IMG/VR virus record: IMGVR_UViG_2778261537_000010
Coordinates: 1 to 4,687 of that record
Origin: a virus
Lineage: Duplodnaviria > Heunggongvirae > Uroviricota > Caudoviricetes
Strand: one strand, 5' to 3'
Length of the DNA stretch: 4,687 nt
Below, piece by piece: positions 1 through 4,687 of the stretch. Position 1 is the first letter of the stretch. Every line of letters starts with the position of its first letter. The translations under genes were made by a program, and so were the position numbers. The notes beneath the pieces were generated by a model. The model searched no databases, was not told where the DNA came from, and saw only the letters and a list, made by a program, of their open reading frames with translations.

Positions 1-813
1 CGCAAGGGGGCCACGGCTGCCAGCGGGTATATGCGCTGGGAAGGTGTCAGCGATGGCCTGAAGGTGACCGCCGGGAGCGTGATTCAGCGCGATGACCTGG
101 TTCAGTACATGGCAACTGCCGATGCAACCAGCTCCGGTGGTGTCCTGCGTGTGCCGATCACTTGCTCAACTACAGGCGCGGTCGGTAACGCTGACGACGG
201 TACGGCATTAATCCTGGTCACGCCGGTGAATGGTCTGCCGTCTTCCGGTGTTGCAGATACCCTGACTGGCGGATTCGATACTGAAGATCTGGAAACGTGG
301 CGCGCCCGCGTCATTGAGCGGTATTACTGGACGCCGCAGGGCGGGGCTGACGGGGACTATGTCGTCTGGGCTAAAGAAGTGCCCGGCATTACCCGCGCAT
401 GGACATACCGTCACTGGATGGGTACGGGAACTGTCGGTGTGATGATTGCCAGCAGTGACCTGATTAATCCCATTCCGGAAGAATCAACGGAAACGGCGGC
501 AAGACAACATATCGGGCCACTGGCCCCGGTGGCAGGCTCTGATTTGTATGTGTTCAGGCCGGTGGCACATACGGTGGATTTTCATATCCGCGTGACGCCG
601 GACACACCGGAAATACGGGCTGCCATCACCGCGGAGTTGCGTTCGTTCCTGCTGCGTGATGGTTATCCGCAGGGAGAACTGAAGGTATCGCGTATCAGTG
701 AGGCGATTTCCGGTGCGAACGGGGAATACAGCCATCAGTTGCTTGCACCGGCAGACAATATCTCCATTGCAAAAAATGAACTTGCGGTTCTGGGGACGAT
801 TTCATGGACGTGA
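1..813 (+). CDS. Baseplate J-like protein (Mu gp47 / P2 gpJ family), C-terminal part; 5' end lies upstream of the window
   Basis: The frame of the 31..813 ORF stays open back to position 1 (codons from nt 1: [11 protein letters not shown]...), so the gene begins outside the window. Sampled GC is high (41/60 over nt 301-360). The product is a soluble protein whose stop overlaps the start of the next gene (ATGGACGTGA, nt 804-813), which is typical of phage tail operons. Family assignment is from recalled similarity to baseplate J proteins and from gene order (J-like, I-like, fibre, chaperone), not from a search. Confidence 0.7.
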
Positions 814-1388
814 CAAACGATGATTACATCCGTCTGTTGTCGGCACTGCTGCCGCCCGGTCCGGCATGGTCAGCCAGCGATCCGGCGATTGCCGGTGCGG
901 CACCGTCATTAACCCGCGTTCATCAGCGTGCGGATGCCCTGATGCGGGAGCTGGATCCGCGCACCACCACCGAACTGATAAACCGCTGGGAGCGTCTGTG
1001 CGGCCTGCCGGATGAATGTATTCCCGCAGGGACACAGACCCTTCGCCAGCGTCAGCAACGGCTGGATGCGAAGGTTAATCTGGCGGGCGGCATCAATGAG
1101 GATTTTTATCTTGCACAGCTTGCTGCCCTGGGCAGACCAGACGCCACCATCACGCGATACGATAAAAGCACTTTCACCTGCTCATCGGCCTGTACTGACG
1201 CTGTGAATGCGCCGGAATGGCGGTATTACTGGCAGGTCAACATGCCAGCCGCCACCAACACCACCTGGATGACATGTGGCGACCCCTGTGATTCCGCACT
1301 GCGTATCTGGGGGGACACCGTTGTCGAATGTGTGCTTAACAAACTCTGCCCGTCGCATACCTACGTAATTTTTAAATATCCGGAGTAA
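804..1388 (+). CDS. Phage baseplate/tail protein, Mu gp48 / P2 gpI-like (DUF2313-type, YmfQ-like)
   Basis: 194-aa ORF with an ATG at 804 that overlaps the upstream stop by 10 nt. Its N-terminus ([23 protein letters not shown]...) matches my recollection of the YmfQ/gp48-like family found next to baseplate J in Mu-like prophages. It ends 3 nt before the tail fibre start. Confidence 0.7.
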
Positions 1389-1391
1389 TCC

Positions 1392-2024
1392 ATGCATCGT
1401 ATAGACACAAAAACCGCGCAGAAGGATAAGTTCGGCGCGGGTAAGAACGGTTTTACCCGTGGTAACCCCCAGACCGGCACGCCAGCCACCGATCTGGATG
1501 ATGACTACTTTGACATGTTGCAGGAGGAACTTTGCAGCGTGGTGGAGGCATCCGGTGCCAGCCTGGAGAAGGGGCGGCATGACCAGCTGCTTACAGCGCT
1601 TCGTGCGCTGCTGTTAAGCCGCAAGAATCCGTTTGGTGATATCAAATCGGATGGCACGGTGAAAACGGCTCTCGAAAACCTTGATTTGGGAGAGTTGGCC
1701 TTGGCAGGGGTAATGACAGGCCTTTTTGATACCAATGGCTATCTGAAACTCCCAGCAATTATTGATGGCAAGCGAAAAATTTTGATATTTCAATGGATGT
1801 CCATTTCAGCCAGTGCCACACCATCTTATTACAATTTACCTATCGCATGGCCAACCAGAGGGCTACATGCATTTGCTGTTGCTCAAACGGGGATTGATCA
1901 GTCAACCACTGCCTCTGCATTTATTGAAACTTCCTTGGTTAATCAACAAGTTTTTGTTAAGTGTATTAACTCTGCTGGGGCATTACAATCCCGTGGTGTT
2001 AGTTTATTTATGATTGGTATGTGA
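1392..2024 (+). CDS. Short tail fibre protein: conserved N-terminal anchor domain plus a divergent AT-rich C-terminal tip
   Basis: 210-aa ORF with a GGAG Shine-Dalgarno at 1381-1384, 7 nt upstream of the ATG at 1392. The N-terminus (MHRIDTKTAQKDKFGAGKNGFTRGNPQTGTPATDLDDDYFDMLQEEL...) is the recognisable conserved N-terminal region of enterobacterial prophage tail fibres. GC falls from 36/60 (nt 1441-1500) to 20/60 (nt 1921-1980) within the gene. It is followed directly by a chaperone gene. Confidence 0.7.
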   Translation: MHRIDTKTAQKDKFGAGKNGFTRGNPQTGTPATDLDDDYFDMLQEELCSVVEASGASLEKGRHDQLLTALRALLLSRKNPFGDIKSDGTVKTALENLDLGELALAGVMTGLFDTNGYLKLPAIIDGKRKILIFQWMSISASATPSYYNLPIAWPTRGLHAFAVAQTGIDQSTTASAFIETSLVNQQVFVKCINSAGALQSRGVSLFMIGM

Positions 2025-2032
2025 GAACAAAA

Positions 2033-2425
2033 ATGGATATTTCCTATAAATTCGCTAATGGCGTATTTTACCCCAGCGATATTGAATATAAATCGATTCC
2101 AGAGAGTGCGATTGATGTTACCTATGAAGAATATGCTAAAGCCATGAGACGTCCGACAGGTTATAATTTTACGGTGGACAAAGAAGGTATAGTAACGCTG
2201 ATTGAACATGTAATTTCAGAAGAAGAGTGGAAACTGGACATAGAGGCGCAACTTGCATTATTACGACAGAGGGCTGATAACGAAATAGGATGGCGGCAAT
2301 ATGCAGTTGAAAGAGGTAAAGCGACGGAAGAAGAAGTAGTTGCCTTAATTAAATGGCAGGATTACAAGTTAGAGTTAATGCGAGTAGATACATCAAACCC
2401 AGTATTGCCTACCATCCCTGAATAA
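2033..2425 (+). CDS. Tail fibre assembly chaperone (Tfa / P2 gpG / Mu U family)
   Basis: The ORF track starts this ORF at a GTG at 2021, which overlaps the fibre stop; I prefer the ATG at 2033 (MDISYKF...), but either start is possible. The C-terminus (...ALIKWQDYKLELMRVDTSNPVLPTIPE) fits the conserved W-x-x-Y-x-x-x-L-x-R-V-D ... P motif at the end of Tfa proteins. Position immediately after a fibre gene and low GC (21/60 over nt 2041-2100) agree. Confidence 0.7.
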   Translation: MDISYKFANGVFYPSDIEYKSIPESAIDVTYEEYAKAMRRPTGYNFTVDKEGIVTLIEHVISEEEWKLDIEAQLALLRQRADNEIGWRQYAVERGKATEEEVVALIKWQDYKLELMRVDTSNPVLPTIPE

Positions 2426-2433
2426 GATTATTC

Positions 2434-2461
2434 CCCTCTATCGCGCAATAACGATAGAGGG
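2434..2461. terminator. Candidate bidirectional intrinsic terminator between convergent genes
   Basis: Perfect 10-bp inverted repeat CCCTCTATCG (2434-2443) / CGATAGAGGG (2452-2461) with an 8-nt loop. It lies 8 nt after the chaperone stop (2423-2425) and 5 nt before the stop of the convergent - strand gene (2467-2469). Flanks are only moderately U-rich on either strand (ATTTATCAT on +, AATAATCTTATT on -), so terminator strength is uncertain. Confidence 0.45.
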
Positions 2462-2466
2462 ATTTA

Positions 2467-3783
2467 TCATCTCATTCTCTTGATAATAAAACCAAGTAAT
2501 ATGACAAATTGAACCAGAGAGCACAGGATTGAGAAATGGAGATACCTATAGTCAGATGCAGGGCTGACGAAGAAGTGAGGCACTGCAAATATGAAGCATG
2601 AGACGCCCAGCAACAAGCCTATACATTTTATACTGCTTCTGATAAAAATAAATGAAATTGTTGATACCAGAGCAAGAAGTAAATAAATCCATGGCAAGTA
2701 AATATAAGGCATAGATTTTACTGTTTCCACATATAAAGAGCTTGCCTTATTCGGTGTGAATGAGAACCCCCATTGGTTTTCAACACTTCCTTCCTGCACG
2801 ACCCATGCTGGAGTGCTACTACCAACCCTAAGCAATTCATTGAATGTGTCCAATCTTACTTTTAAGTAAGACAATGGGTTATTCTTTATTTCATAAATCC
2901 ATTTTTTACCAAGTGCATTGATTTCATCACTGTTTTCGGTTGTAAGATTGCCAGCCTTTGTATTGTAGAACATTAAATTGTTGCTCCCAGGCCAATAGAA
3001 AGACTTAACATTATTTTTGGTGATGCCGACTTTATCAACGATATATTCAGGAAGTAAAATATCTCCCTTTTCCACGCTCATACCAAGCAGATCATAGCTC
3101 TGTATATATTGAAGTGGTGATGTCTTGGTCACGGTAAGCGTGCTAACAATAAGCACAGGTAATGCTATTATTATTACGTTTGATACGATGTAAAAAGATA
3201 CTTTCTTGTATATGCTATTGCATTTTTTGTCATAATAAAACCACCATGCCATGATTACTAGTGCAACTGGAATGCCATTTGTTTTACTTCCGCATGCAAG
3301 CGCCATTATAAGAATCAGGATAATAAGCCTTGTTATAGACTGCTTGTTATTTTCGATGGAGTTGAATGTTATCCCAATGGACAAAATCATTAGTGATGAG
3401 AAAACGACGTCTTTCCATATCTGCGCGGTAATAAGAATAACTTGAGGTGCAGCTCCAGCTATCAAAATAGCAATAGATAAATAGCCTATTCTCTTATGTA
3501 AGGTTATAGATAAAAGGTAAAGACCAAGCCAATAACAAATCTGGTTTTGAATAAGAAAAATGCCAGGCCCAGAGTCGATTAAATTTAACTTGCTCCACCA
3601 CCATGCCATTATAACAGGTTGCCAAGAATTATAATGACCAGTAAGGGATTCATAATATTGAGTAGTGGAGTCAACGCTCATCCATCCAGGATAAAACGTC
3701 ATTGTACAAAACATCATGAATGCAAGTGATGTTAATATGTATATATATTTATAATTCAATTTACTATTTGACTTTAAGGGCAT
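2467..3783 (-). CDS. Polytopic inner-membrane protein of unknown function; candidate lysogenic-conversion enzyme (gtr-type / GT-C-like O-antigen glycosyltransferase is the leading hypothesis, by inference only)
   Basis: A 1317-nt ORF in roughly 35%-GC DNA (21/60 over nt 3301-3360); an uninterrupted frame this long in AT-rich sequence is strong evidence of real coding. The translation has about 8 hydrophobic segments in the first ~220 aa, with an acidic/aromatic loop after the first one (PGWMSVDSTTQYYESL). A ~150-aa hydrophilic region follows (TKTSPLQYIQ...SLYVETVKSMPY), then three C-terminal hydrophobic segments. Its size, AT-richness and convergent placement next to a tail fibre assembly gene resemble known prophage gtr(type) genes, but it could equally be a Wzy- or ligase-like protein or something unrelated. 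Confidence 0.6.
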   Translation of the reverse strand: MPLKSNSKLNYKYIYILTSLAFMMFCTMTFYPGWMSVDSTTQYYESLTGHYNSWQPVIMAWWWSKLNLIDSGPGIFLIQNQICYWLGLYLLSITLHKRIGYLSIAILIAGAAPQVILITAQIWKDVVFSSLMILSIGITFNSIENNKQSITRLIILILIMALACGSKTNGIPVALVIMAWWFYYDKKCNSIYKKVSFYIVSNVIIIALPVLIVSTLTVTKTSPLQYIQSYDLLGMSVEKGDILLPEYIVDKVGITKNNVKSFYWPGSNNLMFYNTKAGNLTTENSDEINALGKKWIYEIKNNPLSYLKVRLDTFNELLRVGSSTPAWVVQEGSVENQWGFSFTPNKASSLYVETVKSMPYIYLPWIYLLLALVSTISFIFIRSSIKCIGLLLGVSCFIFAVPHFFVSPASDYRYLHFSILCSLVQFVILLGFIIKRMR

Positions 3784-3927
3784 AAATACACTCTTTCAAC
3801 ATGTATAATAAAGTTATGAAATGTAGAGCATTATGCACCAATATTAGATTCTCTTCCATATATTAGTTAGAAATTGATGAGAAATATACCTCTCTGAACG
3901 GGAAAGTACAGAATTTTACAGTTGAAA
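3784..3927 (-). promoter_or_regulatory. AT-rich upstream region of the membrane-protein gene; probable promoter region, elements not resolved
   Basis: About 145 nt of very AT-rich non-coding sequence between the ATG at 3783 and the inferred IS terminus. On the - strand it contains -10-like hexamers (CATAAT, TATTAT, TATACA) and a weak Shine-Dalgarno (AAGAG) about 10 nt before the ATG. No confident -35/-10 pair could be assigned by eye. Confidence 0.25.
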
Positions 3928-4262
3928 TGACCTGCCCCCAGGATTAGATACAACTCTCAGTTAGTAACGTCGGAATCTTCATTCTCAGAATGACCCTTTC
4001 TCCAGCGCGCCGCAAATTCAGACGGTGTCTGATAATTCAGCGTGGAGTGCGGGCGGCACTCGTTATAATCCTGCCGCCAGTCATTAATGATTTTCCTGGC
4101 ATGAACGATATCGCTGAACCAGTGCTCATTCAGACATTCATCGCGAAATCGTCCGTTAAAGCTCTCAATAAATCCGTTCTGCGTTGGCTTGCCCGGCTGG
4201 ATTAAGCGCAACTCAACACAATGCTCAAAGGCCCATTGATCCAGGCAAGGGTTTCTGGTCTT
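3928..4262 (-). mobile_element. IS3-family insertion sequence remnant (one terminus plus the 3' part of the transposase gene); the 5' part of the element is missing
   Basis: Contains the C-terminal transposase fragment described in the next feature. On the + strand the sequence from 3928 (TGACCTGCCCCCAGGATTAGATACAAC) begins with TG and has a G/C-rich block like the terminal inverted repeats of IS2-group elements as I recall them. The upper boundary is approximate: recognisable transposase sequence is lost between roughly 4245 and 4280. Confidence 0.6.
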
Positions 4263-4277
4263 ATGGCAATAATAAAA
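3957..4277 (-). pseudogene. Truncated IS3-family transposase (OrfB), C-terminal ~100 aa only
   Basis: The - strand frame translates to ...LDQWAFEHCVELRLIQPGKPTQNGFIESFNGRFRDECLNEHWFSDIVHARKIINDWRQDYNECRPHSTLNYQTPSEFAARW..., the conserved C-terminal region of IS3-family transposases. The 84-aa ORF in the track begins at a TTG, and the frame stays open upstream only to an in-frame stop at 4278-4280. Residues before LDQWA do not look transposase-like, and the catalytic core and N-terminal half are absent. Confidence 0.7.
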
Positions 4278-4410
4278 TCATTACTGATACTGGCTGCGGT
4301 AGTTGAAACCGCAGACACGTCGTATGCAAGAACGTGCTGCGGTTGGCTGGTAAACTTCCGATAGTGCGAGTATTGAATGATTTCCAGCCGTTACTGATTT
4401 TACGTGCTAA

Positions 4411-4659
4411 TTAGTGAACAAACCACTCGTCAGCAGATTCCCAGGTATCTTTCAGAGTTTCCTGAACAAAAGTTTTAGCTGAATCTTTATCGGCGGTGCG
4501 CGTAACAGAAAGGCCATCGTTACTGGTGGCTTTTACGATCACCTCTACATCGTCATAACGCTTACTGATGCGTCGGGTTAATTCTTCCTTTAACGCATCC
4601 ACAGCACCGTTTGGCATTTTAGTCATTTTTTCTTTGGCTATGCAGATTTCAATACGCAT
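4411..4659 (-). CDS. DinI-family protein (DNA-damage-inducible protein I-like)
   Basis: 82-aa ORF ([35 protein letters not shown]...[17 protein letters not shown]) that shares the MRIE..IAK, DAL..EL.RRI, LSV, QET..WESAD.WFV pattern with E. coli DinI as I recall it. A GAGGG Shine-Dalgarno lies 6 nt upstream of the ATG on the - strand. It is too divergent from chromosomal dinI to use that symbol. Confidence 0.8.
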
Positions 4660-4672
4660 AAAAGTCCCTCTA

Positions 4673-4687
4673 TACTGTGTTTGTATA
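4673..4687. promoter_or_regulatory. Partial LexA (SOS) box cut by the window edge, upstream of the DinI-like gene
   Basis: The + strand reads TACTGT GTTTGTAT A at 4673-4687, i.e. the TACTGT half-site, an 8-nt spacer and the first base of the expected ACAG half-site, against the consensus TACTGT-N8-ACAGTA. The remaining bases lie beyond nt 4687. It sits about 12 nt upstream of the SD, where an operator would overlap the promoter. Confidence 0.3.

Follow-up and report, generated by a model that had tools for sequence, protein, structure and literature searches.

The 4,687-nt stretch of DNA analysed here (IMG/VR record IMGVR_UViG_2778261537_000010, positions 1 to 4,687; called the window in the following) is the right end of an Escherichia coli SfV/e14-like prophage with a Mu-type contractile tail. 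It encodes a short tail fibre, the tail fibre assembly chaperone (Tfa) and, in convergent orientation, a membrane protein that, judged by its structure model, is a glycosyltransferase of the GT-C fold. The explanation favoured here, with a little more than even confidence in it as a whole, is that this block combines the receptor-recognition end of the phage with a conversion cargo, in which the GT-C enzyme would use a host-made donor to add a side branch to the O101/O162 O-antigen. For the enzyme, we infer the donor, the acceptor and the expression. The ratings of this explanation and of its rivals are not mutually exclusive in every detail.

The membrane protein has no match in Pfam, PHROGs or NCBIfam, and tblastn found none among 50,697 phage records. 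Against PDB sequences, a profile search yielded chance-level matches only, and a fold search in BFVD gave weak matches to uncharacterised proteins and no known GtrC. A scan of 35 family members produced one sub-threshold match to PMT_2 (E=3e-4), one match to GT87 and nothing else. An AlphaFold model built with a 35-sequence alignment was of high quality (predicted local distance difference test, pLDDT, 93.6; predicted template modelling score, pTM, 0.92) and has about 11 transmembrane (TM) helices in a polytopic fold, whose N-terminal TM module places it in the GT-C_A superfamily. This module is common to PMT, ArnT, STT3/PglB and ALG enzymes. Residue D38 (P32-G33...D38-S39), in the place of the acidic catalytic residue of GT-C_A enzymes, lies just past TM1 in the first external loop of the model and is invariant in the 35 homologues, as is W123-K124-D125, and the protein of the window keeps all family-invariant residues. 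Conservation reaches 58 % in the external loop and 53 % in a periplasmic domain of about 130 aa, which is inserted between TM helices in the model, versus 37 % in the TM segments. The N-terminus, with three lysines and no aspartate or glutamate, is predicted to be cytoplasmic, which sets the presumed orientation. We take the enzyme to use a polyprenyl-phosphate-linked sugar at the periplasmic face, a chemistry predicted from fold and conservation. An identity as acyltransferase, Wzy polymerase or transporter was considered and rejected, as the fold evidence points to GT-C alone: matches of the model to MFS and other transporters had Foldseek probabilities of at most 0.12, and a Pfam scan found no AT3 or SGNH signature in the protein.

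The family to which this enzyme belongs is widespread, proteobacterial, often fused to GT2 and absent from Pfam, NCBIfam and PHROGs. A homology search returned 58 relatives, 22 of which carry a fused N-terminal GT2 domain (PF00535) and are about 640-730 aa long; among 80 more distant loci from species-representative genomes, a related GT2 is fused or lies within 3 kb in 49. A 51 %-identical homologue stands at the end of an O-antigen/capsule cluster. Homologues of 43-45 % identity (P0009, WP_089078941-type; P0010) form the end of a set of seven genes that lies between gnd and ugd on E. coli and Citrobacter-type contigs, and they align with 95-99 % of the query at E-values of 1e-118 to 1e-120 and share its invariant residues. 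The other genes of this gnd-ugd set encode a flavin adenine dinucleotide (FAD) oxidoreductase, two unassigned proteins, an AP_endonuc_2 protein, an SMR/ArnF-like protein of 118 aa and a GT2. In the O162 set, the best matches of the GT2, WP_000679908, are polyprenyl-phosphate sugar synthases and that of the 118-aa protein is ArnF, all below the curated cut-offs. A 631-aa homologue in another, metagenomic polysaccharide locus is accompanied by the same accessory enzymes and a GtrA-family flippase. The accessory set that recurs in E. coli O162/O101, Citrobacter-type and metagenomic loci (L104:12293-18659 in NZ_AP027829.1, L117-L119, L120-L122) comprises an FAD oxidoreductase, genes that are unassigned or resemble short-chain dehydrogenases/reductases, an AP_endonuc_2 TIM barrel, a flippase of the SMR/ArnF or GtrA type and a GT2. 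It is a candidate for a lipid-linked 4-deoxy-hexose side-branch pathway. The first-pass annotation had suspected that the membrane protein modifies the cell surface, and the modelled GT-C fold, the slot equivalent to that of gtrV and the ties of the family to O-antigen and other polysaccharide loci and to GT2 lipid-sugar synthases argue for an enzyme of this type.

In E. coli, the gnd-ugd set lies in the ABC-transporter O-antigen locus of the O89/O101/O162 family. A 4-deoxy-D-arabino-hexose side branch distinguishes O162 from O101, and the genes between gnd and ugd have been proposed, without test, to make and transfer this branch (PMC7685785). Their role in it is still 'hypothesized' in PMC13168486, and the function of the chromosomal set itself is likewise only a hypothesis in both sources. 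The set was found in 6 of 5,426 complete E. coli genomes. NZ_AP027829.1, the sole complete E. coli genome with the prophage end of the window, is among these six, and prophage end and set also occur together in two draft samples (GCA_012117455.1, SRR12470807). Neither the window nor any part of the NZ_AP027829.1 prophage holds flippase or GT2 genes of the gtrA/gtrB type, and a chimeric-query search, which detects SfV-type gtrAB in about 705 genomes, found none in the NZ_AP027829.1 chromosome. The operon with flippase, GT2, FAD oxidoreductase and AP_endonuc_2 is not present in cis in the window and is present in trans in this host. Because the flippase and the lipid-sugar synthase are missing, the block is not the self-contained unit that had been supposed. 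Since the prophage lacks gtrA and gtrB, the chromosome lacks SfV-type gtrAB and the gnd-ugd set co-occurs, a host-made donor is assumed, and the simplest reading of these small numbers is that the phage enzyme would depend on the GT2 and the flippase of the host's O162-type locus.

Alternatively, the donor could be a generally available one, either undecaprenyl-phosphate-linked 4-amino-4-deoxyarabinose or its formylated form (Und-P-Ara4N, Und-P-Ara4FN; made by ArnC) or undecaprenyl-phosphate-linked glucose (Und-P-Glc) from the GtrAB of another prophage, and the association with O162 would be a clonal coincidence. This is considered improbable. GtrA and GtrB are indeed interchangeable between phages (PMC3306764) and the co-occurrence sample is small, but SfV-type gtrAB is absent from the one complete host genome, and in E. 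coli, Citrobacter-type and metagenomic loci the nearest relatives of the enzyme consistently lie within the DAO/AP_endonuc_2/GT2/flippase set, which points to a pathway-specific donor.

The receptor-recognition side of the block begins within the fibre gene. From nt 1, the window is about 96 % identical at the nucleotide level to SfV, SfI, SfII and SfIV, and this homology stops exactly at codon 100 of the fibre (nt 1693); at the protein level, the identity of 92 % to SfV orf21 is confined to aa 1-110. The baseplate J gene is likewise about 96 % identical to that of SfV/SfI, and the fibre anchor weakly matches aa 41-114 of the Mu fibre protein S. The break in composition coincides with the end of the SfV-group homology: the GC content is 0.57 in J and gp48, 0.55 in the fibre N-terminus, 0.41 in the tip, 0.39 in Tfa and 0.36 in the membrane protein gene, and the GC content at third codon positions (GC3) falls from 0.59-0.62 in J, gp48 and the anchor to 0.33, 0.33 and 0.37 in the tip, Tfa and the membrane protein gene. 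The first-pass annotation of the open reading frames (ORFs) and of a 210-aa fibre with a conserved anchor and about 100 aa beyond it was accurate, the anchor ending at codon 100; its statement that fibre and membrane protein gene have the same low GC describes a real low-GC3 block, in which the sameness is approximate. The idea that the fibre is unusually short was rejected, as 208-226 aa is the norm in this phage group: SfV orf21 has 216 aa, and among 5,416 fibre homologues at E<=1e-20, the top-scoring ones listed, which share the anchor, mostly have 208-226 aa. The tip itself matches Pfam Gp53-like_C (PF21882) with E=0.0022 and 18.9 bits, below the cut-off of 24.9, which sibling fibres with other tips do exceed.

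Members of the tip family are rare. Searching for homologues of the tip by itself gave two fragments and was uninformative. The family was found in five of the 5,426 complete E. coli genomes; when viral and metagenome contigs were scanned with the tip alignment, the only additions were an IMG/VR contig with the same prophage and a metagenome contig that ends just past the tip. All five complete genomes carry wzm-wzt of the O89/O101/O162 family, compared to a base rate of 315/5426 (5.8 %). In four of them (P470, 4588, LR-72 and 23CRST017), the tip is 90-96 % identical to that of the window and is followed by Tfa, a convergent 657-aa AT3-SGNH acyltransferase, IS1, intS and argW. That a nearly identical tip is paired with an alternative O-antigen-type modifier in the same slot speaks for the favoured explanation. 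Strain 4588 has the O89m/Onovel32 locus architecture described in PMC6128206. Some Onovel32 (O89m) clinical strains are known to agglutinate with O162 antiserum although their locus lacks the genes downstream of gnd (PMC13168486). The Onovel32-type genomes in this analysis (L010/L002) carry the prophage AT3-SGNH acyltransferase beside the related tip.

Tips are exchanged between fibres. Members of the family with 75-95 % identity to the tip of the window are joined to three further N-terminal anchors, and a fourth anchor carries a tip of 56 % identity. The tip-to-argW block of the four genomes is attached to two different baseplate backbones, therefore recombination must have occurred within the fibre gene. 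The identical argW-proximal block (tip, Tfa WP_096229719, AT3-SGNH WP_096229718, IS1, intS) is seen in L002:9392-14721 and L010:5655-11032, joined to a backbone of the YmfQ/gp48 type in P470 and of the DUF2612 type in 4588. On a third anchor, the family appears at 75-81 % identity, in L113/L114 together with an AT3-SGNH enzyme. A resolvase fragment is retained beside this acyltransferase, which suggests that the cargo genes replaced half of an invertible cassette. Such a cassette, of the Pin/Gin type, was observed in Klebsiella quasipneumoniae (L110:7001-9518, L111, L112), likewise on the third anchor. One of its arms consists of a tip of 81 % identity with the associated Tfa; it also contains a second Tfa, an alternative Gp53-like_C tip and a resolvase, and the prophage is integrated at dusA. 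This cassette contains no modifying enzyme.

Whether tip, chaperone and enzyme form one module can be judged from two comparisons. The window and strain P470 are homologous up to nt 2419, six bases short of the tfa stop codon (nt 2423-2425); past this position, P470 has the AT3-SGNH acyltransferase in place of the GT-C. Identity between the two prophages amounts to 96 % in the tip and 73 % in Tfa, and their cargo genes are unrelated. In locus L003, a 78 %-identical GT-C is convergent to a Tfa of 55 % identity and a fibre with a tip of 49-56 % identity, in a phage whose baseplate (myovirus Phage_Wedge1, Sheath_initiator, E217-like) is unrelated to that of the window. This GT-C is also an orphan, with no GT2 within 616 bp upstream. 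With amino acid identities of 78 % for the GT-C, 55 % for Tfa and 56 % for the tip, the order of conservation is the reverse of that seen with P470, and tip, Tfa and cargo therefore recombine independently. A recent joint transfer of tip, Tfa and GT-C as one block was rejected on account of these unequal identities. What recurs is the architecture, as a convergent O-antigen-type modifying enzyme follows the tip family in four of the five resolved contexts, and the block can be called a co-adapted module only loosely. A single co-adapted unit, as first proposed, is not supported, given the end of homology at nt 2419 with its swapped cargo, the different identities of tip and Tfa and the enzyme-free Klebsiella cassette. 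The pairing of fibre and enzyme nevertheless recurs in L003, where the 78 %-identical enzyme accompanies a homologous tip and Tfa on a myovirus backbone that is unrelated. Of the suggested receptor-recognition and receptor-modification unit there remain, with the enzyme class as modelled, the glycan-modifying type of enzyme, the gtrV slot and the O89/O101/O162 group membership of all five complete E. coli genomes with the tip, without the unit being either self-contained or single.

Several observations weigh against the favoured explanation. The co-occurrence with the gnd-ugd set is based on a single complete genome and two drafts, among which clonal relatedness is possible, and the five tip-bearing genomes may represent only two to three independent acquisitions. 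Tips of 79-81 % identity are present in prophages of Klebsiella and Kluyvera, hosts from which no O101-type antigen is known, which would fit a receptor other than the O-antigen. The GT-C has no sequence match and no detectable fold match to known phage GtrC proteins. Furthermore, a 74 %-identical homologue is located at a non-phage chromosomal site flanked by insertion sequences (IS; IS3 remnants). The GT-C ORF is split by IS2 in NZ_AP027829.1 (L001:14785-16013) and truncated by a different IS, with a 293-aa IS3-family transposase ORF, in an IMG/VR contig (L012:1-882), and such disruption could mean that the gene is dispensable or costly. Finally, a promoter scan of the region ahead of the GT-C gene (nt 3784-3956) did not exceed the shuffled expectation and gave no convincing promoter.

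Part of this evidence would suit a GT-C that is a moron in the customary insertion-tolerant site between tfa and the end of the prophage, without functional link to the fibre. It would then modify O-antigen, enterobacterial common antigen, capsule or core for the benefit of the host, for example in immune or serum evasion or against other phages, and the fibre receptor would be unrelated. The boundary at nt 2419 and the AT3-SGNH cargo after a 96 %-identical fibre are consistent with such generic cargo, as are a Tfa of just 73 % identity next to a 96 %-identical tip, the tfa'-invertase arrangement that most E. coli relatives have at this site and the occurrence of the tip family in an invertible cassette without any enzyme. 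The same applies to the GT-C family at large, which is overwhelmingly chromosomal, and to the IS-borne 74 % homologue, which lies far from phage genes. A Tfa or fibre homologue stands beside the GT-C gene in none of the 80 loci from species-representative genomes; the homologues thus lie mostly away from fibres, whereas a fibre-enzyme module, as envisaged in the first-pass annotation, would place them beside fibres. Opposed to this are the renewed synteny of tip, Tfa and GT-C in the unrelated phage backbone of L003, the presence, in four of five resolved tip contexts, of an O-antigen-type modifier that runs convergent to tfa and the restriction of the tip family to the O89/O101/O162 group among complete genomes. 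On balance, generic cargo is regarded as possible, though doubtful.

The IS insertions lead to a different alternative, in which the gene is a decaying, non-functional remnant of a gtrABC-like operon that lost its GT2 and flippase genes through the activity of IS3-family elements. An IS3 remnant does lie exactly where gtrB and gtrA would be expected, the ORF was hit independently by IS elements in two assemblies and the scan gave no credible promoter. However, at least 24 contigs carry the exact 438-aa protein in intact form, at two attachment sites, and in every case the 130-aa Tfa and the 210-aa fibre are its neighbours. Assemblies with an intact gene include GCA_003774225.1 and GCA_002228105.1. 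Between the window and the L003 copy, which is an orphan as well, the ratio of nonsynonymous to synonymous substitution rates (dN/dS) is 0.12 at a dS of about 1.1, which shows that the GT-C gene is under purifying selection. All family-invariant residues are kept, and a compatible GT2 and flippase are available in trans in the O-antigen locus of the host. A decaying remnant is rated as very improbable. Independently of this question, IS activity is concentrated at the GT-C gene, and an IS3-family remnant is found upstream in all copies.

Under the favoured explanation, the phage end would consist of three separately exchangeable pieces in all: a low-GC tip grafted at codon 100 onto the conserved baseplate anchor, its Caudo_TAP chaperone and, across a shared terminator, the convergent GT-C as lysogenic-conversion cargo. 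In a lysogen, the GT-C would reside in the inner membrane with its catalytic loop, which contains the invariant D38, in the periplasm. It would take an undecaprenyl-phosphate-linked sugar, probably 4-deoxy-D-arabino-hexose, made and flipped by the GT2 and the SMR-like flippase of the host's O162-type gnd-ugd set, and attach it to a new position of the N-acetylglucosamine/N-acetylgalactosamine O-antigen of O101/O162, forming a side branch. More speculatively, the receptor for the phage's own tip would thereby be altered and superinfection reduced, as in the Shigella Gtr phages. The most specific version, that a phage-borne orphan paralogue of the host side-branch transferase hijacks the host 4-deoxy-hexose donor for a new position and is paired with a tip specific for the O-antigen backbone, is put forward tentatively and is rather unlikely in all its parts. 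If true, it would be a case of serotype conversion that works in only one rare O-type, it would imply unrecognised O101/O162 sub-variants and it would provide a first functional handle on the uncharacterised GT-C family and on the hypothetical 4-deoxy-D-arabino-hexose pathway. O101/O162 is an emerging multidrug-resistant serogroup of extraintestinal pathogenic E. coli and a target of conjugate vaccines (PMC13168486). The basis of its antigenic variants is only partly understood, and a prophage GT-C that belongs to the gnd-ugd enzyme family and occurs in precisely these strains would be a concrete, testable source of further O-antigen heterogeneity.

The features of the window are listed in Table 1. 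The hairpin between the convergent genes is probably the shared terminator of tfa and the GT-C gene; in SfV, a rho-independent terminator is annotated at the corresponding place. Tfa exceeds the Caudo_TAP (PF02413) cut-off of 22.1 with 50.7 bits. Two candidate starts lie within nt 2018-2035, the ATG at 2033 chosen by the gene callers, which gives 130 aa, and a GTG at 2021, which gives 134 aa and overlaps or abuts the fibre stop codon. The IS3 remnant is annotated in RefSeq as an incomplete integrase-core coding sequence. The DinI gene adjoins prfC in some lysogens and an integrase and dusA in others, therefore the phage has integrated at two or more sites. In one lysogen (L101:2965-4462), the prophage is deleted and the conversion end retained: gp48, fibre, Tfa and GT-C are kept, and early-region genes (DUF968, KilA-N) have taken the place of the remaining tail module. 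At the other end of the NZ_AP027829.1 prophage, the anti-phage gene Dsr1 (defence-associated sirtuin) lies beside the integrase (L115:6665-10492; 3580664-3584491).

Table 1. Features of the window, with coordinates in nt of the 4,687-nt stretch
Feature	Position	Strand	Evidence or remark
Baseplate J / Mu gp47-like gene, 3' part	31-813	+	Pfam Baseplate_J E=3e-47; GC 0.57; backbone, outside the exchanged block
YmfQ / Mu gp48-like baseplate wedge gene	804-1388	+	Pfam Phage_Mu_Gp48 E=9e-27, PHROG 203; backbone
Short fibre, 210 aa	1392-2024	+	ORF
Fibre N-terminal anchor, aa 1-100	1392-1693	+	Conserved SfV-orf21 / Mu-S-type baseplate attachment domain
Fibre receptor-binding tip, aa 101-210	1694-2024	+	Predicted; low-GC exchanged cassette
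Tail fibre assembly chaperone (Tfa)	2033-2425	+	Pfam Caudo_TAP E=2.6e-13, PHROG 188
GC-rich hairpin between convergent tfa and GT-C genes	2434-2461	.	Terminator-like scan match, 10-bp stem
Orphan GT-C-fold membrane glycosyltransferase, 438 aa	2467-3783	-	Predicted lysogenic-conversion cargo; gtrV-equivalent slot
AT-rich region upstream of GT-C gene, 173 nt	3784-3956	-	GC 0.32; first 63 nt conserved with L003 copy
IS3-family transposase remnant, C-terminal 84 aa	3957-4211	-	Pfam rve_3 E=6e-31, NCBIfam transpos_IS3; sits where SfV has gtrB/gtrA
DinI-like gene at prophage end	4411-4659	-	Pfam DinI E=1e-19; context marker, outside the module

Three-component periplasmic glycosylation systems include GtrABC, ArnC/ArnEF/ArnT, CsbB/GtcA/YfhO and GacI-L. 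The closest known arrangement to the one described here is that of SfV, shared by SfI, SfII, SfIV and SfX, in which the short fibre (orf21) and Tfa (orf22) are followed by gtrV-gtrB-gtrA. In SfV and related Gtr phages, the enzyme modifies the O-antigen that serves as phage receptor (PMC3306764, PMC3636060). The window has the same order of gp47, gp48, short fibre, Tfa, terminator and convergent polytopic glycosyltransferase at the prophage end, with baseplate genes and fibre anchor about 96 % identical in nucleotides and 92 % in amino acids. Its GT-C occupies the same position and orientation as gtrV, between the Tfa gene and the prophage end, and by this analogy is the probable counterpart of gtrV in position and role. 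In contrast to the SfV Gtr cluster, gtrA and gtrB are absent and the GT-C gene is preceded by the AT-rich stretch and the IS3 remnant. The IS3 remnant and DinI follow in place of attP-int, and the host belongs to the E. coli O101/O162 group instead of Shigella flexneri. The enzyme is also unlike GtrV in sequence (BLASTP E=0.17, hhalign probability 0.1 %), GtrV being the only GtrC type that was compared directly.

Compared to the chromosomal gnd-ugd enzymes (P0009/P0010), the phage GT-C belongs to the same family, has the same invariant residues and is present in the same genomes, but the chromosomal copies end a seven-gene operon with its own GT2 and SMR-like flippase, while the phage copy stands alone. 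ArnT and PMT are longer than its 438 aa, and it does not reach the Pfam thresholds of PMT_2, GT87 and similar families. Phage O-antigen acetyltransferases (Sf6 Oac; AT3-SGNH enzymes of the OafA/OafB type) use the same slot with a different enzyme class and chemistry, and the AT3-SGNH enzymes of P470, 4588 and L113/L114 occupy exactly this convergent position, behind a tip of 75-96 % identity and its Tfa. The arrangement is regarded here as a probable form of phage serotype conversion, by an orphan GT-C of an undescribed family that likely acts together with host-encoded partners. The concept of phage serotype conversion is well known; what would be new is a converting phage that relies on host-serotype-specific donor synthesis instead of its own GtrA and GtrB, together with the undescribed enzyme family and the relevance to O101/O162.

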